Virus record (IMG/VR): IMGVR_UViG_2784746744_000001
Span: 1 to 64,000 of that record
DNA: 64,000 nt
Source: a virus
Reading direction: 5' to 3' (one strand)
Part shown: positions 14,374-31,711 of the stretch, piece by piece
Numbering within the stretch: position 1 is the stretch's first letter
How the letters are laid out: each line of letters begins with the position of its first letter
The notes under the pieces: model-generated
The model's database searches: none
What the model saw: the letters and a program-made list of their open reading frames with translations, nothing else
Told to the model about the DNA's origin: nothing
Position numbers and translations under genes: made by a program

Positions 14374-14931
14374 ATGACCCCGGCGAACGATAACCGCCCT
14401 ACACCAAAAAGGCCGGCCGGCTTCGACGCCGCGCTCGAATCCTACCTGCCTTCGCTCCGGAAGCAGGCAAACTATATGGCCGGCACACGTGAGGACGGCG
14501 AAGTCCTCCTGCATGAGACCGTCCTGCGGATGCTCCGCTGCGCCGATAACTGCCGCGTGGAGACGTTCAAAACCTGGGCGCAGTACAAGCTGCTCAACAC
14601 CCACAGTGGCATGAGGGCGGCAGCCCGCAGCCAGTGCCGGTTCGCGCCGACGACGTCACTTACTCCTGCCAACGATAACGACCCGGACGAATTCGCTCGC
14701 ACGATCTCCCAGATGCGGACGGCTGCGACGCAGGAAGCGGATGCTGACTTTGCGGATGCGCTCCGGGTTCTCGGCACCATCAAGGACGGTGACTTGCTTC
14801 TCCGTCGCGCGATGGGTTTTGAGCTCAAGGTCATCGGCGACGAGCTCGGCGTGAGCAAGGAGCGCGTCCGCCAGCGTGAAGAGGCCGCAAGAACGGCGTT
14901 CTGCGCAGCGATGCAGCGGAGTGTCGCCTGA
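14374..14931 (+). CDS. ECF-type sigma-70 family sigma factor (regions 2 and 4). Two ANDN motifs
   Basis: Region 2-like LLHETVLRMLR. Region 4 HTH LKVIGDELGVSKERVRQ. Confidence 0.65.
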   Translation: MTPANDNRPTPKRPAGFDAALESYLPSLRKQANYMAGTREDGEVLLHETVLRMLRCADNCRVETFKTWAQYKLLNTHSGMRAAARSQCRFAPTTSLTPANDNDPDEFARTISQMRTAATQEADADFADALRVLGTIKDGDLLLRRAMGFELKVIGDELGVSKERVRQREEAARTAFCAAMQRSVA

Positions 14932-16721
14932 TGGGTCTTCGATACTATCAGGAAGATGCTGTTGCAGCACTGTTCGATTATTGGGGCGAGGAGGCGGGCA
15001 ATCCGTTGATCGATCTCGCGACCGGCACCGGCAAATCCATGGTCATGGCCACGGTTATCCGCCAGCTTGTCGAAGGCTGGCCGGACATGCGCATCATGGT
15101 CGTGACGCACGTAGCGGAATTGATCGAACAGAACTTCCTCGAACTGCTCAGCGTCTGGAATCAGGCGCCGGCAGGTATCTTCTCGGCCGGCCTCAATCGC
15201 CGTGATGCTCGCAGCCAGATCATCTTCGCCGGCATTCAGACCGTCTGGAACAAGGCCGACCTGATCTGTGGCGCGCGCGTCGTCAATGGTGAGAAGGTTT
15301 ATGACCGACCTATCGACGTCGTTCTTGTCGATGAGTGCCATCTGATTCCGAAAAACAGCGACACTCAATACGGCCAATTCTTCCGCGTCGTGCGCGAGGT
15401 GAATCCGGATCTCAAGATAGTCGGGCTTACCGCGACGCCGTTTCGCCTAGATAGCGGTCGCCTCGATGAGGGCGAGGACCGGATGTTCGACCGCGTGGTC
15501 TACACCTATGGTATCGCCGACGGGGTACGCGACGGCTATCTCGCCCCGCTGTCGTCGAAGCACACCGCCACGGAACTGAGCATGAAGGGCGTGGGCCGTC
15601 TGGGCGCGGACTATAAGCAGTCGGCCATGCAGGCGGCCGTGGATAAGCCGGACGTCACGCAGGCGGCCGTTGACGAGATCGTAGCGAAGGGCGCGGACAA
15701 ACGTTCCTGGCTTTGCTTCTGCTCTGGCGTCGAGCATGCTGAGCACGTTCGCGACGAGATCCGGTCACGCGGAATCAGTTGCGAAATGATCACCGGCGAC
15801 ACGCCCAAGGAAGAGCGCCGGCGCATCATCGAAGACTTCAAGGCCTTCCGGATCCGCGCGTTGACGAACAATTCGGTTTTGACGACCGGCTTCAATCACA
15901 AGGGCGTCGATCTCATCGCGGCTTTGCGGCCGACGCTGTCCGCATCCCTTTACCTGCAGATGATGGGGCGAGGGACGCGCGTGCTCTATGCGCCGGGTAT
16001 GTCGCTGGAAACGCCGGACGAGCGCCGCGCTGCAATTGCCGCTGGTCCGAAGCCATCCTGCTTGGTGCTCGACTTCGCCGGTCTCGTAGACAAGCACGGA
16101 CCAGTGGACATGGTGCAGCCGAAGGAGCCGGGCAGCGGTGATGGCGAAGCGCCGATGAAGATTTGCCCGGTCGATCGTCAGGACAAGAACGACAACTATG
16201 GGTGCGGTGAGAAGCTGCATGCATCGGCGCGGGTCTGCTCATGCTGCGATTATGAGTTCGACATCGACGATAGCCCAAAGATCGCCGGCACAGCTGCCGA
16301 CGTTCCGATCATGACGATGGCTGAGCCGGAATCGCGCAACGTCACCAGTCGCACGTTCCGATTCCATGAAGGGAAGGGCGATAAGCCACCGTCAGTGAAG
16401 GTTACCTTCATGTCTGGCATGACGGCCATCAATGAGTGGCTATGCCCCCAGCATTCCGGTTTTGCAAAGACGAAGGCGGATCGTTTCTGGCTGGCGCACG
16501 GTGGCAACCGGCCTTTCCCACGCGAAGTGATGGAGTGGCTAGAAAGGCAGAGCGAGCTGAAGGAAACAGTGGAGATCACCGTCCAGCCGCGCGGAAAATA
16601 CTGGGATGTGGTCGGGCATGTCGTCGGAGATTATGCAGCGGCAAACGACAACGATGAGCCGCCGGCTAACGATAATCGGCCGGCTTGGACGGACGAATTG
16701 GAGGACGGGATTCCGTTTTGA
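14931..16721 (+). CDS. SF2 DEAD/DEAH-box DNA helicase (res-subunit-like) with C-terminal zinc ribbon. C-terminal ANDN x2
   Basis: Motif I TGTGKS. Motif II VLVDECH. Motif III LTATP. Cys cluster near the C-terminus. Confidence 0.8.
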   Translation: MGLRYYQEDAVAALFDYWGEEAGNPLIDLATGTGKSMVMATVIRQLVEGWPDMRIMVVTHVAELIEQNFLELLSVWNQAPAGIFSAGLNRRDARSQIIFAGIQTVWNKADLICGARVVNGEKVYDRPIDVVLVDECHLIPKNSDTQYGQFFRVVREVNPDLKIVGLTATPFRLDSGRLDEGEDRMFDRVVYTYGIADGVRDGYLAPLSSKHTATELSMKGVGRLGADYKQSAMQAAVDKPDVTQAAVDEIVAKGADKRSWLCFCSGVEHAEHVRDEIRSRGISCEMITGDTPKEERRRIIEDFKAFRIRALTNNSVLTTGFNHKGVDLIAALRPTLSASLYLQMMGRGTRVLYAPGMSLETPDERRAAIAAGPKPSCLVLDFAGLVDKHGPVDMVQPKEPGSGDGEAPMKICPVDRQDKNDNYGCGEKLHASARVCSCCDYEFDIDDSPKIAGTAADVPIMTMAEPESRNVTSRTFRFHEGKGDKPPSVKVTFMSGMTAINEWLCPQHSGFAKTKADRFWLAHGGNRPFPREVMEWLERQSELKETVEITVQPRGKYWDVVGHVVGDYAAANDNDEPPANDNRPAWTDELEDGIPF

Positions 16722-16735
16722 GAGGTTACCAGCGA

Positions 16736-17401
16736 CTAACTCTTCGTTTTTATCCCTTTCTCAAGCTTGTGCTCCAGGCCTCGCATGATCGATGTGCTCA
16801 TGGCTGAAAAAGCTCCCACGGGAGAAAGCTCACGCTTTTTCAGATTCCGGTAAATCGCTTTGCGCGTAGCCATGGGTATCGTCTTGTCGGCTAGTTGTTG
16901 GAAAATGAGTAGTATTTTTTCAGCGTGCTCTGTCCTCATCTCTATTAAATCCGGTCTGTTAAGACCGATAATTTCGATCGTGGACAAGCCTGGAATGGAG
17001 CCGCAATGCCCCGCGACAGGCCCAGCAAAGACAATGTGGTCATCGGGGTCGGTGATGTAGGGATCAATTATTTGGGCGGCGGTAGGATCATCGTTCGATT
17101 TGTTTTGATTACATAATTCGCACGCCAGCGTCAGGTTGTCCCATTTGAAAGTCTTCTTAGGATCTAGTGACTTCGGATAGATATGCTCGACATCACCATG
17201 ATGCACATGTTTGAGTTTAGCTTCGCAATAGGCGCACTTGCCATTTGTCTCAAGGGTTAGGACGCGCTTTATGTCGACGTGTCGATATTTGCTCTTGAGA
17301 CCATCGTTTGCGTTCTTACCTGCAGCAAGGAGATCTGCCAGCCAGGCAGCGCCATTCGTTACAAGCACAGTTGGCTCGGTTAACTTAGAGAGCTTTATCA
17401 T
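16736..17401 (-). CDS. HNH endonuclease, PtuB-like (Septu-like defence partner)
   Basis: CAYCE...HHGDVEHIYP...N...CELCN HNH motif. 4-nt overlap with the upstream ATPase. AT-richer than the surrounding genes. Confidence 0.7.
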   Translation of the reverse strand: MIKLSKLTEPTVLVTNGAAWLADLLAAGKNANDGLKSKYRHVDIKRVLTLETNGKCAYCEAKLKHVHHGDVEHIYPKSLDPKKTFKWDNLTLACELCNQNKSNDDPTAAQIIDPYITDPDDHIVFAGPVAGHCGSIPGLSTIEIIGLNRPDLIEMRTEHAEKILLIFQQLADKTIPMATRKAIYRNLKKRELSPVGAFSAMSTSIMRGLEHKLEKGIKTKS

Positions 17402-18648
17402 CTGTTTGCAGCCATTCTCGCGAGCGTTTCTGCGAAGTAATCATCCAGCCCAAGCTGTGTCAGTTGCGAGCGCATTTGCTCAATATTGCCCTCAGTCAAG
17501 TTGTTGATATCGAACGCCTTTGATACCTTATAGAGCTCCTCTTCTGCCCAGATCGGCATCGTTACCGGCACTCCAAGTACCTCGCGCAAGACGTCGCCTG
17601 CAGAACCAGACTTCGAATCTTTGGTCAACGCTACGGAATAAACCGATCCGCCTGAGGGTAAAATGTTGTTCGCGCTCTTATATCTCAAGGCGTATATCGA
17701 CGAATCGCGAACAGACGAAACGACAAAAGGACTGTGGGTGGCGACGATGAATTGCCCACTTGGAAACGCTTGCAGCAGATTTCCCATAAGTGTGCGTTGC
17801 ATAGAAGGGTGTAGGTGATTTTCTGGCTCGTCGATTAAGCAAACAAAATTCGTTCTTTTCCGTGAATATAAGAAAACCTGCCAGGCCAAGTCCAATATGG
17901 AGTGAAGTCCGCCCGATGCACCGTCTATAGGGAAGTCACCTGTGTCAGTAACAATGACTACATCAGGAACTCTAATGCTAAGTGTCCTGAAACCTAGGCT
18001 CTGAGGAAGAAGCTTGCCCAGAACATCCTTGAACGCTTCGTAGTCGGCCTCGATCTGAACGTTACGAGGAATGTTGGGGTTTCCTACCCCAAATGTCGCC
18101 ATTGATATCAGCGCCTCTTTCATCCGAAAGGCCGGCGAGGAGGCCGTGTAACTATTCGCGATCTTGTGCTTTATCTCCTCATCGTAGAGCGTGTACGCCT
18201 GCTCTGCAGACATAGGATTGCTCCTTATGACATCCACGGCTTGGTATGTTGGGATAAACCTGTGAGACGCGATGTACAGGCCGTCCAGAACTTGCGACCC
18301 TCGAGTATGATGCAAGTTATATGCCCCAGAGTCAGTGCCCAGAGCGTGTAATCCTGATTTTGTGCCGTCTGAGAACGTCACCATCCCAATGCGGTTTTGC
18401 TCGTCCATAGCGCGCTGGCCTTGCCTTTTGTCGCGATCGTTCGCGACGTATCGCACGGTACCATCGTCGTCGATGTGCGGCGTCGCCACCAGCAATTGAT
18501 TGAAGCCAAACATCATGCCCAAGGTCTTCAGGATGGTGCTTTTACCCGAACCATTTGCGCCGGCGATTACGGTGAGGCGAGGATGGAAATCAATGTTGAT
18601 GGAGGCGTATTGCCGCCAATTCTCAATCTCAAGGTTATTAAAAATCAC
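17398..18648 (-). CDS. ABC/OLD-type AAA_15/21 ATPase, PtuA-like (Septu-like defence)
   Basis: N-terminal Walker A GANGSGKST. Walker B FVCLIDEPENHLHP. 416 aa. Operon with the HNH gene. Confidence 0.7.
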   Translation of the reverse strand: MIFNNLEIENWRQYASINIDFHPRLTVIAGANGSGKSTILKTLGMMFGFNQLLVATPHIDDDGTVRYVANDRDKRQGQRAMDEQNRIGMVTFSDGTKSGLHALGTDSGAYNLHHTRGSQVLDGLYIASHRFIPTYQAVDVIRSNPMSAEQAYTLYDEEIKHKIANSYTASSPAFRMKEALISMATFGVGNPNIPRNVQIEADYEAFKDVLGKLLPQSLGFRTLSIRVPDVVIVTDTGDFPIDGASGGLHSILDLAWQVFLYSRKRTNFVCLIDEPENHLHPSMQRTLMGNLLQAFPSGQFIVATHSPFVVSSVRDSSIYALRYKSANNILPSGGSVYSVALTKDSKSGSAGDVLREVLGVPVTMPIWAEEELYKVSKAFDINNLTEGNIEQMRSQLTQLGLDDYFAETLARMAANR

Positions 18649-18859: not shown

Positions 18860-19411
18860 ATGATGAAGGATGCCCATAGCCTTCAGTACCTGAAAGAATG
18901 CTTGAGATACAATCCAGAGACAGGCGCGCTCCACTGGCGAGAAGATCGTCCCAAACATCACTTCGACTTATCAAGAACACGCAATCGGTGGATTGGGCGT
19001 TTTGGTGGAAAGCAGATCACCTGCGTCGCGGAAAGCGGCTACATCGTGTTCAACTTGCGTGGCGTTGTCTACCTCGCTCATCGCGTAATCTTTGCGATGG
19101 AGAACAACATCGAGATGGCAGAACTGCCTGAGCAGATCGACCACAAAGACACGGTTCGCACCAACAACCGCCGAAGCAATTTGCGAGCGGCAGACGTTGT
19201 TAAAAACGCGCATAACATGTCCGTTCGTCGTGATAGCGCCTCCGGATACAAGGGCGTCACATGGGGCAAGCAGCGTCAAAAATGGCGAGCCACGATCCAG
19301 ATCGATGGAAAACAGAAGCATCTCGGATTCTATGAGGATCCGGCAGAAGCTCATGCCGCCTACATCAAGGCAGCAAATGAGAATTTCGGTCAGTTCGCGA
19401 GGGCAGCATGA
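18860..19411 (+). CDS. HNH homing endonuclease with AP2 DNA-binding domain
   Basis: HNH_3 motif YLAHRV...IDHKD...N. AP2 domain SGYKGVTWGKQRQKWRATIQ...FYEDPAEAHAAY. Confidence 0.7.
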   Translation: MMKDAHSLQYLKECLRYNPETGALHWREDRPKHHFDLSRTRNRWIGRFGGKQITCVAESGYIVFNLRGVVYLAHRVIFAMENNIEMAELPEQIDHKDTVRTNNRRSNLRAADVVKNAHNMSVRRDSASGYKGVTWGKQRQKWRATIQIDGKQKHLGFYEDPAEAHAAYIKAANENFGQFARAA

Positions 19412-20436: not shown

Positions 20437-21762
20437 ATGACGAGCACGACGATGCACGACGGAAGAGTCGTGCTGCATCAGGCCGACTGCCGCGACGCCT
20501 TGCGCAGTTTGGGCGACAACTCGATCGACAGTGTGGTCACAGACCCGCCGTATGCGTTGGTGTCGATCCAGAAACGCTTCGGAAAACCGGGCGCGGCGCC
20601 GGCCAAGGACGTTTATGGTCGCGGCGCGGCTGGGTTCATGGGCAAGCAGTGGGACACAGGTGAAGTCGCGTTTAGCGATGAGTTCTGGGTGGAAGTGTTG
20701 CGCGTTCTTAAACCGGGCGGCCATGTGGCAGCCTTTGGGGGCACACGTACCTATCATCGGATGGCCGTAGCAATCGAAGATGCGGGCTTCGAGATACGTG
20801 ACCAGCTTGGCTGGGTTTATGGATCGGGTTTCCCAAAATCACATAATCAGACCGGTGATTGGGAGGGTTGGGGCACTGCGCTCAAGCCAGCATGGGAACC
20901 AATCTGCCTCGCGCGAAAGCCTCTGGCCGGTACCGTGGCGGCAAACCTTGAGGAGTGGGGCGTCGGTGCGATCAATGTTGATAAGTGCCGCGTTGCGACG
21001 GAAGAAGCGTTGAGCGCCGGTGCCGGAAAGTTGTGGTCGTACTACCGTGAAGGCGAGGCAAGTGCAGACCGCAGATACAATGACGTGGGTGGCACTAGCT
21101 TCTCATTGAAGCCTGGTACTAGAGGCGGTGATCCTGCCGGCCGATGGCCAGCAAACATCCTGCACGACGGCAGCGACGAGGTACGCTCTGCTTTCCCAGA
21201 TGCGAAGGGTCAGCAGGGAGACCTGAACGGTCAGTCGAAAGACCGCAAGAGCAAAGGTATCTTTGGCGATATGCCTGCCGCTCGGCAGGCGTTGGCTCGC
21301 GTGGAGGCCGACACCTCAGCCGCGCGGTTCTTCTACTGCGCAAAGGCAAGTCGGGCCGATCGGGACGCCGGCCTTGAGCACCTGCCGAAGAAAACAGGCG
21401 GCATGGTTTCAAACACCTCGGGCCAACACATCACCCGACGTGATGCCGAATATAAGCCGGAGCCTCGAGCAAATACACATCCGACCGTCAAACCGATCAC
21501 CCTTATGCAGTGGCTCTGCCGCCTCATCACGCCGCCCAATGGTGTAGTTCTCGACCCTTTCATGGGCTCCGGATCGACGGGTAAAGCGGCTGTCCTTGAA
21601 GGTTTTCGGTTCGTGGGATGCGAGCGCGAGGAAGAATACATGCCGATTGCGTCATCTCGTATCGCGTGGGCAATCGGCGCAGCGGACAAATCGGAGCAAG
21701 CCCCAGTGATACGCGTCGCCAATGACAATCGGGAAGGTGATCTGTTCGGGGTGGCAGCATGA
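20437..21762 (+). CDS. DNA N6-adenine/N4-cytosine methyltransferase (beta-class, DPPY motif first). C-terminal ANDN-x-EGDLF tail
   Basis: DPPY at the N-terminus. AdoMet motif FMGSGSTG near the C-terminus. CcrM-like architecture. Confidence 0.85.
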   Translation: MTSTTMHDGRVVLHQADCRDALRSLGDNSIDSVVTDPPYALVSIQKRFGKPGAAPAKDVYGRGAAGFMGKQWDTGEVAFSDEFWVEVLRVLKPGGHVAAFGGTRTYHRMAVAIEDAGFEIRDQLGWVYGSGFPKSHNQTGDWEGWGTALKPAWEPICLARKPLAGTVAANLEEWGVGAINVDKCRVATEEALSAGAGKLWSYYREGEASADRRYNDVGGTSFSLKPGTRGGDPAGRWPANILHDGSDEVRSAFPDAKGQQGDLNGQSKDRKSKGIFGDMPAARQALARVEADTSAARFFYCAKASRADRDAGLEHLPKKTGGMVSNTSGQHITRRDAEYKPEPRANTHPTVKPITLMQWLCRLITPPNGVVLDPFMGSGSTGKAAVLEGFRFVGCEREEEYMPIASSRIAWAIGAADKSEQAPVIRVANDNREGDLFGVAA

Positions 21763-22384: not shown

Positions 22385-24433
22385 ATGACGCTACATTTCG
22401 CGCCGGATCCCGCACCCCCGCTCATCATCGACAGCTTCGCCGGCGGCGGCGGAGCATCAACCGGTATCGAGCTCGCGCTCGGTCGATCGCCGGACATTGC
22501 CGTGAACCACAATCCGGCGGCACTGGCGCTTCACGCTGCCAACCACCCCGATACGCTCCACCTGTCGGAGAACGTCTACAAGGTGGATCCGCTCGACTAC
22601 CTGCGCCGCAGACACGTTGGCCTCGCTTGGTTCTCGCCTGACTGCAAGCACTTCTCGAAGGCAAAGGGCGGCAAGCCGGTGGAGCGCAATATCCGCGACC
22701 TGTGCTGGATCATTCCCGGCTGGATCGAACGCATCCAGAAGAGCGGCGGCAAGGTCGACGTCGTCATCATGGAAAACGTCGAGGAGTTCAAGGATTACGG
22801 CCCACTGATGCAGACCGAGCGCGGCCTCATGCCTGACCCGGCACGCAAGGGCGAGACGTTCAAGGACTGGTGCAAGAAGCTACGCAAACTCGGTGGAAAG
22901 ATTGAGTTCCGCGAGCTCCGCGCCTGCGACTACGGCGCGCCGACGATCCGAAAGCGGCTCTTCGTCATCGTCCGCTTCGACGGCAAGCCAATCGTGTGGC
23001 CGGAGCCTACCCATGGCAAGCCAACGGATGCAGATGTCATCGCCGGCCGCAAGCTGGCATGGCGGACGGCCGCCGAGTGCATCGACTGGAGCCTGCCTTG
23101 CCCGTCGATCTTTGATACGTCGGAGCAGGTGATTGCTCGCCATAGTCTTCGCGCCGTACGTCCGCTGGCTGACGCCACCATGTCGCGTGTTGCACGCGGG
23201 ATGAAGCGGTACGTGCTGGATGCGGAGCGGCCGTTTTTGGTGTCGGTCGGCTGCAACACTGGCGAAGAGCGACGCGCATCCGACGGCTGGAAGCAACGCC
23301 ACGACGTAGCTGGCACGACCGCGCCACACCTGTCGGCTTTTTATGGTGAGGGTAAGGGCGGCAATGATCGCGCAGCGCCTGCGGACGAGCCTGTCCGTGT
23401 AATCTCGACGGCCAACCGGCATGCGCTCATCGCGCCCAACCTTATGAGCCTCAAGGGTAGCGCCCGGCGGGACAGCGCGGCGAACGATCCGCATCCAACC
23501 GTTCTGGCTGGCGGTGGTCACTCTGCAGTCATCGCTCCCGTTCTCAGCTATGCACAGCAGGGCGGCGCCAATCGGTCCGTAGAGGATCCGCACCACACCA
23601 TCTGCGCCAGCCTGAAGGATCAGAACGCGGTCATCATCCCGACGCTTGTTGGTTGCGGTGGCAGGGCCGGACAGTCACGCCCTCGCGGCTGTGACGAGCC
23701 GACCGCGACTATCACAGCGAAAGCGGACGGCTGCGTATCTATGGCGTTCATCGCGCAGCACAACAACGACAACCGTCGCATCGGCGGCGTGAACCCGGGC
23801 CGTGACGCCGGAGAACCCATGTCAACCGTCACAGCCACCGGTGCCCAGCAGGGCGTTGTCTCGGCGTTCGTTTCGCGTCAGTTCGGCGCTTCGATTGGAC
23901 ATGGCATTGAGGAGCCGTCGGCGACAATCACGGCAGGCGTCAACAAGTCGGCTCTCGTGGCGCCGTACCTGCAGGCCTACTATGGCACCGGCGACGGAGG
24001 TGAGGAGAACCAGCCAGCGCGGACCATCACCACGAAGGACCGTCACGGCCACGTCGAAGCCGCCCTGCAGGTTCCGCCCTTCACAGCGGAGCAGGAGGAT
24101 CGCGCCCGCGAAGTGGCAAACTTCATGCGCGAGCACGGCTTCTGGGACGATCGCGAGTTCGTCACGTTGTCGATCGGTGCCGACACGTTCGTCATCGTCG
24201 ATATCGGCATGCGCATGCTGACGCCCCGCGAGCTCTACAACGCGCAGGGATTCCCGTCGGACTATCGCATCGACGAGGATGCCGACGGCAACGCGTTCCC
24301 GAAGTCGGTTCAGGTCAGCTGCGTCGGCAACTCGGTCTCGCCGCCGGTGGCGCGTGCGCTGGTAGCGGCCAACTGCGAACACTTGGCTGCGGCGAATGAC
24401 AATGTCAGCGATGTGTCTCTTCGCGCCGCTTGA
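22385..24433 (+). CDS. DNA cytosine-5 methyltransferase with expanded variable region of about 7 tandem TRD-like repeats (multispecific-type architecture). C-terminal AANDN
   Basis: Motif I FAGGGG. PC motif SPDCKHFS. ENV. Motif VIII RKRLF. Motif IX LTPREL..QGFP. Motif X GNSVSP. 682 aa. Confidence 0.85.
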   Translation: MTLHFAPDPAPPLIIDSFAGGGGASTGIELALGRSPDIAVNHNPAALALHAANHPDTLHLSENVYKVDPLDYLRRRHVGLAWFSPDCKHFSKAKGGKPVERNIRDLCWIIPGWIERIQKSGGKVDVVIMENVEEFKDYGPLMQTERGLMPDPARKGETFKDWCKKLRKLGGKIEFRELRACDYGAPTIRKRLFVIVRFDGKPIVWPEPTHGKPTDADVIAGRKLAWRTAAECIDWSLPCPSIFDTSEQVIARHSLRAVRPLADATMSRVARGMKRYVLDAERPFLVSVGCNTGEERRASDGWKQRHDVAGTTAPHLSAFYGEGKGGNDRAAPADEPVRVISTANRHALIAPNLMSLKGSARRDSAANDPHPTVLAGGGHSAVIAPVLSYAQQGGANRSVEDPHHTICASLKDQNAVIIPTLVGCGGRAGQSRPRGCDEPTATITAKADGCVSMAFIAQHNNDNRRIGGVNPGRDAGEPMSTVTATGAQQGVVSAFVSRQFGASIGHGIEEPSATITAGVNKSALVAPYLQAYYGTGDGGEENQPARTITTKDRHGHVEAALQVPPFTAEQEDRAREVANFMREHGFWDDREFVTLSIGADTFVIVDIGMRMLTPRELYNAQGFPSDYRIDEDADGNAFPKSVQVSCVGNSVSPPVARALVAANCEHLAAANDNVSDVSLRAA

Positions 24434-31550: not shown

Positions 31551-31627
31551 CGCAGAGTAGAGCAGCCAGGTAGCTTGTCAGGTTCATACCCTGAAGGTCG
31601 CGGGTTCAAATCCCGCCTCTGCAACCA
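31551..31627 (+). tRNA. tRNA-Met (CAT), initiator-like (C1-A72 mismatch)
   Basis: Cloverleaf folded by hand. Anticodon loop TTCATAC. T-arm GCGGGTTCAAATCCCGC. 3-prime CCA. High similarity to bacterial tRNA-fMet. Confidence 0.75.
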
Positions 31628-31635
31628 ACTCCCAT

Positions 31636-31711
31636 GCGCGTCTGGCCGAGTGGTTCAGGCAACGGTCTCCAAAACCGTCTAGGTCGGTTCGATTCCGGCG
31701 GCGCTGCGCCA
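31636..31711 (+). tRNA. tRNA-like sequence, possibly tRNA-Trp (CCA anticodon), with imperfect acceptor stem (possible pseudo-tRNA or att remnant)
   Basis: D-arm GCCGAGTGGTTCAGGC. Anticodon arm ACGGT-CTCCAAA-ACCGT. T-arm GTCGGTTCGATTCCGGC. Acceptor pairing only 5 of 7 and no clean CCA register. Confidence 0.35.

Follow-up and report, generated by a model that had tools for sequence, protein, structure and literature searches.

A prophage C5-cytosine methyltransferase carrying a tandem array of putative miniature target-recognition domains

How does a DNA methyltransferase with a single active site come to carry seven versions of one small module, and what might these modules read? The question is raised by a gene in the window, i.e. 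the whole stretch of 64,000 nucleotides analyzed here (positions 1 to 64,000 of IMG/VR virus record IMGVR_UViG_2784746744_000001). The gene lies in the replication module of a prophage and encodes a C5-cytosine DNA methyltransferase (C5-MTase) of 682 amino acids (aa). A preliminary description, made from the sequence letters without database searches, had proposed that its repeats are tandem modules resembling target-recognition domains (TRDs). The units are real, share a defined anatomy and fall into types that are shuffled among related phage enzymes. As to their function, we lean towards an array of seven mini-TRDs on one core, which would let this orphan prophage C5-MTase methylate several short sequences.

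The encoded protein lies above the curated cut-off of the Pfam family PF00145 (68 bits, cut-off 22, E 1.3e-18), with matches at aa 14-196 and again at the C-terminus, and has all of motifs I, IV, VI, VIII, IX and X in canonical order. It also matches the PHROG group phrog_116 'DNA methyltransferase' (E 2.1e-88) and its sequence agrees in full (100% identity) with the NCBI protein 'DNA cytosine methyltransferase [Neorhizobium sp. JUb45]'. The TIGR00675 score of 67.5 bits is under the cut-off of that model (100.65) because of the long insert in the protein. The 682-aa open reading frame (ORF) and the two motifs that had been quoted for it, RKRLF (aa 189) and LTPRELYNAQGFP (starting at aa 612, within motif IX), are present as claimed. 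The gene and its catalytic motifs are as follows:

22385-24433 (stop codon included), plus strand: C5-cytosine DNA methyltransferase gene, 682 aa (ORF and profile matches)
22436-22453, plus strand: motif I, FAGGGG, S-adenosylmethionine binding, aa 18-23 (sequence; F18, G20, G22 and G23 invariant in 150 diverse homologs)
22634-22657, plus strand: motif IV, SPDCKHFS, aa 84-91, with catalytic Cys87 (sequence; aligned to PPCQGFS of PDB 3g7u)
22772-22780, plus strand: motif VI, ENV, aa 130-132 (sequence; at least 90% conserved)
22949-22963, plus strand: motif VIII, RKRLF, aa 189-193 (sequence; aligned to motif VIII of 3g7u and M.SPRI)
24212-24256, plus strand: motif IX, RMLTPRELYNAQGFP, aa 610-624 (sequence; aligned to motif IX of 3g7u and DNMT1)
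24326-24346, plus strand: motif X, GNSVSPP, aa 648-654 (sequence; G648, N649, S650, V651 and P653 at least 90% conserved)

Motif IV is a family variant, with Asp where the canonical Pro precedes the catalytic Cys; 150 diverse family members all have S84, P85 and C87, and at least 90% of them have D86. The catalytic domain was modeled by AlphaFold2 (AF2) with a predicted local distance difference test (pLDDT) score above 90, and Foldseek matched it to the folds of M.HaeIII, M.HhaI and DNMT1. By its intact set of catalytic motifs the protein is a C5-MTase, and activity on cytosine is predicted. Its N-terminus also gave a weak sequence match to 8yf3, the structure of a C5-carboxymethyltransferase.

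Repeats of about 35 aa had been placed between motifs VIII and IX, and this is where seven units, spaced 32-40 aa apart, were delimited at aa 319-561. The seven peptides originally quoted as examples occur verbatim at aa 334, 368, 401, 437, 477, 509 and 543 (window 23384-24067). The units, each identified by peptide, hidden Markov model (HMM) and type clustering, are listed below together with the two stretches that flank them:

23225-23338, plus strand: possible eroded unit at the 'J' position, aa 281-318, outside the unit count (compared with type-J units of close relatives)
23339-23443, plus strand: unit 1 (type I), aa 319-353, ...PADEPVRVISTANRHALIAP, anchor Val (V339)
23438-23542, plus strand: unit 2 (type G), aa 352-386, ...AANDPHPTVLAGGGHSAVIAP, anchor T372
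23537-23641, plus strand: unit 3 (type E), aa 385-419, AQQGGANRSVEDPHHTICASLKDQNAVIIP, anchor T405
23648-23752, plus strand: unit 4 (type C), aa 422-456, GCGGRAGQSRPRGCDEPTATITAKADGCVSMAF, anchor T442; missing from relative P0002
23765-23869, plus strand: unit 5 (type A), aa 461-495, NDNRRIGGVNPGRDAGEPMSTVTATGAQQGVVSAF, anchor T481
23864-23968, plus strand: unit 6 (type B), aa 494-528, SRQFGASIGHGIEEPSATITAGVNKSALVAP, anchor T514
23963-24067, plus strand: unit 7 (type F), terminal, aa 527-561, YYGTGDGGEENQPARTITTKDRHGHVEAAL, anchor T547
24074-24199, plus strand: helix and beta-hairpin insert between the array and motif IX, aa 564-605 (AF2 pLDDT 79-98; helix 568-583, strands 594-597 and 600-603)

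Identity between pairs of units in the window protein is only 12-35%, and no tandem repeat was detected at the DNA level in the gene. Consequently, the duplication of the unit appears to be ancient and diverged, and the missing DNA-level repeat makes frequent slippage or phase variation unlikely. In a leave-one-out HMM test, six of the seven units outscored all 300 shuffles; unit 6 scored best (21.4 bits), while unit 1 was the weakest, its 6.0 bits being equalled by one shuffle out of 300. Seven unit matches of at least 8 bits were found in the real protein and none in any of 200 shuffled whole proteins. Together, the leave-one-out profiles and the whole-protein shuffles exclude a chance origin of the units. 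Once iterated, the unit profile (consensus GRSVDEPLHTVTAGGDHHALVAAFLAKYYG) recovered 1,976 units in 279 out of 282 family proteins, with 2-12 units per protein, and zero in the shuffled set.

The cores of the units in the window protein consist of six Thr-[VI] pairs and one Val-Ile, in unit 1. A Val is found at the anchor in 48 of 135 type-I units, and unit 1 may be a pseudo-TRD, given this residue. Upstream of it, aa 281-318 possibly represents an eroded eighth unit: the flanks DAERPF.V ... APHLSAFY are kept, the P..T core is replaced by SDGWKQRHDVAGTT, and the type-J HMM gives only 3.9 bits. From the Val anchor and the remnant at the J position it follows that some decay occurs in the array. 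Unit 3 has P402, H404, T405, A408, S409, K411, Q413 and N414 invariant in 78 close homologs. The helix and beta-hairpin insert that follows the array is missing from the short family members, i.e. the phi105-type, LPM4 and Dolphis proteins.

Clustering of 45-aa segments centered on each anchor yielded about 17 unit types (A-Q) with a strong type-specific consensus, e.g. AQQGG.NRSVedPHHTITASkKDQNaVI for type E, GCGGRAGQSRPRggDEP.aTiTAKAD for type C, FNtGATGs..dEP.pTiTANSyIKrPGGAAP for type K and YYGtgdg...eP.rTiTTKDRhGHVEA for type F. The order in the window protein is I-G-E-C-A-B-F. These types recur in Pseudomonas phage F116, E. coli phage Flotzy, Aeromonas LPM4, Paracoccus Pyei1 and Rhizobium RR1-A, and also in a Bacillus phage record labelled phi105 (KY197768.1); these distant phages have differing combinations, with 3-9 units per protein. 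As many as 149 distinct architectures were counted among 150 representatives; the first position (J or N) changes little, and it is the middle units that come and go and change places. Identical residues per 31-aa core amounted to 0.41 within types and 0.23 between types. The gain or loss of a single unit can be seen in the comparison with the relative from Endobacterium cereale (P0002, I-G-E-A-B-F), which is 86% identical overall to the window protein and near-identical outside the gap: it is without exactly unit C, and the junction is in register.

The family as a whole comprises at least 2,223 clusters at 50% identity (E<=1e-30), of which the 150 best-scoring representatives range in length from 424 to 1,191 aa. 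Its members are found in phages of Rhizobium, Paracoccus, Pseudomonas, E. coli, Klebsiella, Aeromonas, Bacillus, Nostoc, Gordonia and Mycobacterium. A close homolog in Gellertiella hungarica (P0049, 1,098 aa) is about 400 aa longer, and the Hint domain (PF13403) found in it suggests that an intein interrupts the methyltransferase. In Nostoc phage Nsp-JY10 (PP395642.1) the homolog is 59% identical as a full-length protein, and across 822 bp of its catalytic domain the nucleotide identity reaches 79%; such closeness to a cyanophage gene suggests that the gene was recently transferred between phages whose hosts are very different. Furthermore, the chromosome of Paracoccus sp. ME4 has four separate copies of the family (L014, L017, L042 and L051, with matches of 1.9-2.4 kb), presumably one per prophage.

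The anatomy of the unit was derived from 940 non-redundant units, taken from the representatives at 50% identity and aligned on the conserved Thr (position 0). The generic frame is D-E-P-L-x-T-[VI]-T-A, with Pro at -3 in 98% and Thr at 0 in 95% of the units. Type-dependent conservation, measured as the information gained from the unit type, peaks at +4 to +9 and at about -20 to -10, both of which are polar-rich. Positions +10 to +15 are hydrophobic and were weakly predicted by AF2 as part of a beta-hairpin.

This layout can be set beside that of known recognition domains. Thr250 of M.HhaI acts at the active site, where it holds the flipped base, and the conserved T-L dipeptide of this enzyme is what we take to be T250/L251. 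Monospecific enzymes have a TRD of about 80-100 aa that folds as one domain. In the TRD of M.HhaI, Loop 2 (Ser252, Tyr254) begins at the conserved T-L, which Loop 1 (Gln237) precedes by about 13 residues. Each unit of the window protein reproduces the two-loop layout around T-L that is found in M.HhaI and M.HaeIII, and for this reason each 35-aa unit looks like a complete TRD in miniature; in those two enzymes the layout occupies one domain, whereas here it is compressed to about 35 aa and present in seven copies. On the basis of the aligned positions, we equate the unit frame P-x-x-T-[VI]-T with the conserved T-L element of C5-MTase TRDs. As for structure prediction, AF2 with an alignment of 78 close homologs gave pLDDT below 50 over aa 266-563. 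With a diverse alignment of 150 sequences the mean pLDDT was 74, the array scored 25-67, and one weak beta-hairpin was predicted per unit. Such a model of the array is compatible with TRD-like packing, with one composite domain and with the beta-helix named in the preliminary description. Foldseek searches with the AF2 model returned matches for the catalytic domain only and none for the array, and a search of the C-terminus of the short type against the PDB gave no match.

That tandem TRD arrays had mainly been described for Bacillus phages agrees with the literature, in which reviews up to 2025 attribute them to Bacillus phages only. The enzymes concerned (M.SPRI, M.Phi3TI, M.Rho11sI, M.H2I and M.SPBetaI, also M.phiBssHII and M.BceSV) resemble the window protein in having one core with tandem modules between motifs VIII and IX. 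They also share modules with a P/S-x-T-[LIV]-T core, a phage-borne gene and the lack of a partner nuclease, and their arrays are credited with protection against many restriction-modification systems. The variable regions of M.SPRI, M.Rho11sI and M.H2I contain 3-4 segments with a P/S-x-T-[LI]-T core (SPTITTNKGEG, SHTLSAS, IATTLTSQS, SPTLTTMGEGH and EPAFTVNTIDRHG), and the T-L frame is present in each mapped TRD of these three enzymes. Their last segment scored 5-12 bits with the HMMs of types F, I, L and M, values reached by none of 300 shuffles (type L on M.H2I: one of 300); the type-F HMM gave 9.5-11.6 bits on the Bacillus enzymes, again with 0 of 300 shuffles reaching the score. By BLASTP, unit 7 and the SPR segment are identical at 8 of 16 positions (E 2e-5). 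Judging by these scores, we regard unit 7 as homologous to the last T-[LIV] segment of M.SPRI, M.Rho11sI and M.H2I.

The differences from the Bacillus enzymes are nevertheless considerable. Motif IV reads SPCQ there and SPDC here; the units are 32-40 aa here, compared with about 30-48 aa between T-[LIV] cores there, and up to 12 of them occur here as against 3-4 T-[LIV] segments. About 17 types are here shuffled across phages of Proteobacteria, Actinobacteria, Cyanobacteria and Firmicutes. The independence of the modules, genetically proven in the Bacillus enzymes, is here proposed from sequence. An hhalign comparison of the family with M.SPRI covered motifs IV-VIII only (116 columns, 22% identity, probability 93%), and since the catalytic cores align over no more than these motifs, the window protein is not placed in the SPR-type subfamily. 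It is best described, from these alignments, as an architectural counterpart of the SPR-type enzymes in another branch of C5-MTases. The kinship with SPR-type TRDs thus holds for the core motif in each TRD and, significantly, for the last unit; it does not extend to the other units, and the catalytic core is of a different subfamily. A resemblance of unit 3 (HHTICASLKDQNAVI) to the segment SHTLSAS...KQNAVV in the CCGG region of SPR was considered and dropped, as 20 of 300 shuffles matched the type-E HMM score.

Members of the family of about 700 aa have already been assayed, a point absent from the preliminary description. The window protein is a full-length homolog within the phrog_116 group; tblastn gave 59% identity over 96% of its length with Phi2LM21_p23, 66% with the protein of Rhizobium phage RR1-A and 47.5% with Pyei1_p05. 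The 5-methylcytosine (m5C) enzymes of about 700 aa reported to have 'relaxed specificity' are JCM7686_0772 and JCM7686_2655 of P. aminophilus, ARM81mr_p29 and ARM81ld_p31 of Aeromonas, Pyei1_p05 of Paracoccus and Phi2LM21_p23 of Sinorhizobium. These large methyltransferases are reported to be widespread in phages of Alpha- and Gammaproteobacteria. The likeness to the window protein lies in the same family over the full length and the same location in a prophage replication module; the difference is that broad partial protection was measured for JCM7686_0772 and JCM7686_2655, whereas the window protein is known from its sequence. The published accounts consulted on these enzymes of about 700 aa contain no mention of tandem units and no link to the Bacillus multi-TRD enzymes.

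The two P. aminophilus enzymes were assayed by the Dziewit/Radlinska group, who found partial protection with 16 of 28 restriction enzymes, most of them known to be m5C-sensitive. The protected sites were, among others, AGCT, GGCC, GCGC, CCGG, CCWGG, CCNGG, CCSGG, ACGT, CTCGAG, CAGCTG, GCN7GC and RGGNCCY, and the unprotected ones include CGCG, ACGCGT, TCGCGA, CCATGG, GGNNCC and GATC. No single dinucleotide rule accounts for the protection, since GCGC is protected and CGCG is not, and ACGT is protected and ACGCGT is not. By our estimate, about 7-8 discrete targets of 4-5 bp would account for the pattern, a number similar to that of the units in Pyei1_p05, which carries 8. The unit content of the assayed P. 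aminophilus enzymes themselves rests on a published identity of about 69% to Pyei1_p05 and on a gene size of 2.1 kb. Both Pyei1_p05 and Phi2LM21_p23 share the unit types of the window protein.

If the units are indeed TRDs, each would start with an upstream, type-specific polar segment resembling Loop 1, followed by the generic frame D/E-P-x-x-T-[VI]-T as the 'T-L' element that would hold the flipped cytosine and the DNA backbone. A downstream type-specific polar loop, resembling Loop 2, and a short hydrophobic beta-strand would complete the unit. The units would dock singly or in small sets against the catalytic domain and engage the DNA alternately, so that the single active site, Cys87, could methylate a whole list of short motifs, with one unit presumably standing for one specificity. 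Replicating prophage DNA would thereby be shielded from many host restriction systems at once, and in-register recombination between phage enzymes would add, remove or exchange units and so retune the protected sites. That the units act as independent TRDs, and that the window protein is active and multispecific, is what we infer from the features of the array. What speaks for the TRD-like modules that were first proposed is the T-L frame, the segments resembling Loops 1 and 2, the type shuffling and the homolog assays; homology to the Bacillus modules beyond the last unit did not hold up.

A number of results weigh against mini-TRDs and have to be set beside the evidence above. Across both AF2 runs the array stays at pLDDT 25-67, i.e. 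with no confident fold and no structural support, and a profile of 65 diverse units gave no meaningful match against all PDB sequences. Significant similarity to the Bacillus enzymes is limited to the terminal unit (segment EPAFTVNTIDRHGV), and the generic unit profile found no match in these enzymes at E<=1e-3. The last Bacillus segment is moreover nearly identical in SPR, rho11s and H2, though their specificities differ, and may therefore belong to the framework instead of determining specificity. Unit 1 is without the anchor Thr and has Val instead. The C-terminal end of the array (A-B-F or A-H-L) varies rather little within the family and may serve as a common scaffold, and the expectation that units of the same type would be better conserved than the catalytic core turned out to be wrong (0.49 versus 0.59 identity). 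As for the assays, no activity in E. coli was seen with Phi2LM21_p23, which at 59% identity is the assayed relative closest to the window protein, and the protection by JCM7686_0772 and JCM7686_2655 was never complete, which their authors read as 'relaxed specificity' and not as discrete targets; a single sloppy TRD could also yield such a pattern.

This last thought can be developed into an explanation in which the units pack into one composite TRD, a single enlarged small domain such as a beta-sheet built from hairpins, with one relaxed specificity and with unit number tuning affinity or processivity instead of discrete targets. The single AF2 beta-hairpin per unit could assemble into such a sheet, the C-terminal end (A-B-F or A-H-L) varies comparatively little, and the smallest members keep 2-4 units, which indicates that a functional small domain may need several of them. 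We nonetheless find it unlikely, as the sites that are protected (GCGC, ACGT, AGCT and GGCC) and those that are not (CGCG, ACGCGT and GGNNCC) obey no one short rule, and as the Thr retained in 95% of the units would be needless in a purely structural repeat, if its role is that of Thr250 in M.HhaI. The type-specific polar loops are also conserved over hosts as far apart as Pseudomonas, Paracoccus and Bacillus, and a variable middle order with single units gained or lost alone is hard to square with a tightly packed fold. Less probable still is a working TRD formed by the terminal unit or units alone, those upstream being pseudo-TRDs (decayed duplicates), a flexible non-specific DNA tether or a platform for interaction with replication proteins. 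Inactive 'pseudo-domains' reportedly occur in Bacillus phage enzymes, and the last unit does hold the T-L position relative to motif IX in the short members and in the Bacillus enzymes; the absent Thr of unit 1, the eroded remnant at the J position and a low-confidence prediction of the kind seen for flexible regions fit as well. Yet the upstream types are constrained, e.g. DPHHT..AS.KDQN in 78 of 78 close homologs along with the 95% retention of Thr, and decay would not keep some 17 recognizable types over 2,223 clusters at 50% identity; nor is the broad protection by the homologs easily obtained from one ordinary TRD. Finally, a chance or low-complexity pattern in a linker rich in Gly, Ala, Pro and Thr, with no unit structure, might be read from the unit identity of 12-35%, the lack of a DNA-level repeat and the low AF2 confidence, and retains practically no probability: it is refuted by the leave-one-out and shuffle tests, by 1,976 units against 0 in controls, and by conservation according to type.

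It is already known that annotated methyltransferases of this family are reported as relaxed-specificity enzymes. Arrays of 2-12 mini-TRD units, of about 17 shuffled types and spread far beyond Bacillus phages, are undescribed in the searchable literature. Should the units be independent mini-TRDs, they would offer far more material than the few studied Bacillus enzymes for learning how C5-MTases read DNA. Natural variants differing by a single unit could then assign motifs to unit types, and such assignments would improve the prediction of m5C methylomes, an area poorly covered by PacBio-based surveys. Mini-TRD arrays would also explain the 'relaxed specificity' of the homologs, supply small, exchangeable recognition modules with which targeted cytosine methylation could be engineered, and make the stacking of modules a general phage counter-defence against restriction instead of a Bacillus peculiarity. 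A wider generalization would make the unit of about 35 aa the smallest autonomous sequence reader of C5-MTases, belonging to a shared library of at least 17 cassettes that in-register recombination reassorts into arrays of 2-12, with a cassette-to-motif code across thousands of enzymes and many phyla; this we put forward tentatively and with some doubt.

In the replication module, the gene of the C5-MTase is preceded by an HNH-AP2 gene, an exonuclease-like gene, an N6/N4 methyltransferase gene and a DUF6511 gene, and the next gene downstream is that of a primase-polymerase/helicase. Farther on come the genes for terminase, portal, protease/capsid and tape-measure proteins. No restriction-enzyme gene was found adjoining the methyltransferase genes, and an HNH-AP2 endonuclease ORF is located at the upstream edge of the module. 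The separate N6/N4 methyltransferase, which had been noticed in the same island from the letters alone, is real. These two neighbors are:

18860-19411, plus strand: fusion of an HNH endonuclease and an AP2 domain, at the start of the replication module (PF13392, E 1.4e-7; PF00847, E 4e-7, just under its cut-off)
20437-21762, plus strand: N6/N4 DNA methyltransferase (PF01555, E 4.9e-30; phrog_67, E 2.6e-74)

The 221-position PF01555 profile is spread over aa 30-405 of the N6/N4 methyltransferase, which therefore carries a large internal insert. In phage phi2LM21 the equivalent position upstream of the C5-MTase is held by phi2LM21_p21, an assayed enzyme specific for GANTC. The N6/N4 methyltransferase of the window has no similarity to phi2LM21_p21, and as the two are unrelated no specificity can be transferred to it. 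Likewise, the gene between the two methyltransferases of the window showed no similarity to phi2LM21_p22.

A complete Septu anti-phage system (16736-18648, minus strand) lies just upstream of the replication and methylase module of the prophage, near a helicase gene, and two adjacent tRNA genes are found inside the prophage, between its replication and packaging modules:

14931-16721: SNF2/DEAD-like helicase, near the Septu genes
16736-17401, minus strand: PtuB HNH nuclease of Septu (PADLOC PDLC00337, E 1e-68)
17398-18648, minus strand: PtuA of Septu (PADLOC PDLC00290, E 2.6e-151, full length)
31551-31707, plus strand: tRNA-Met (CAT) and tRNA-Trp (CCA)

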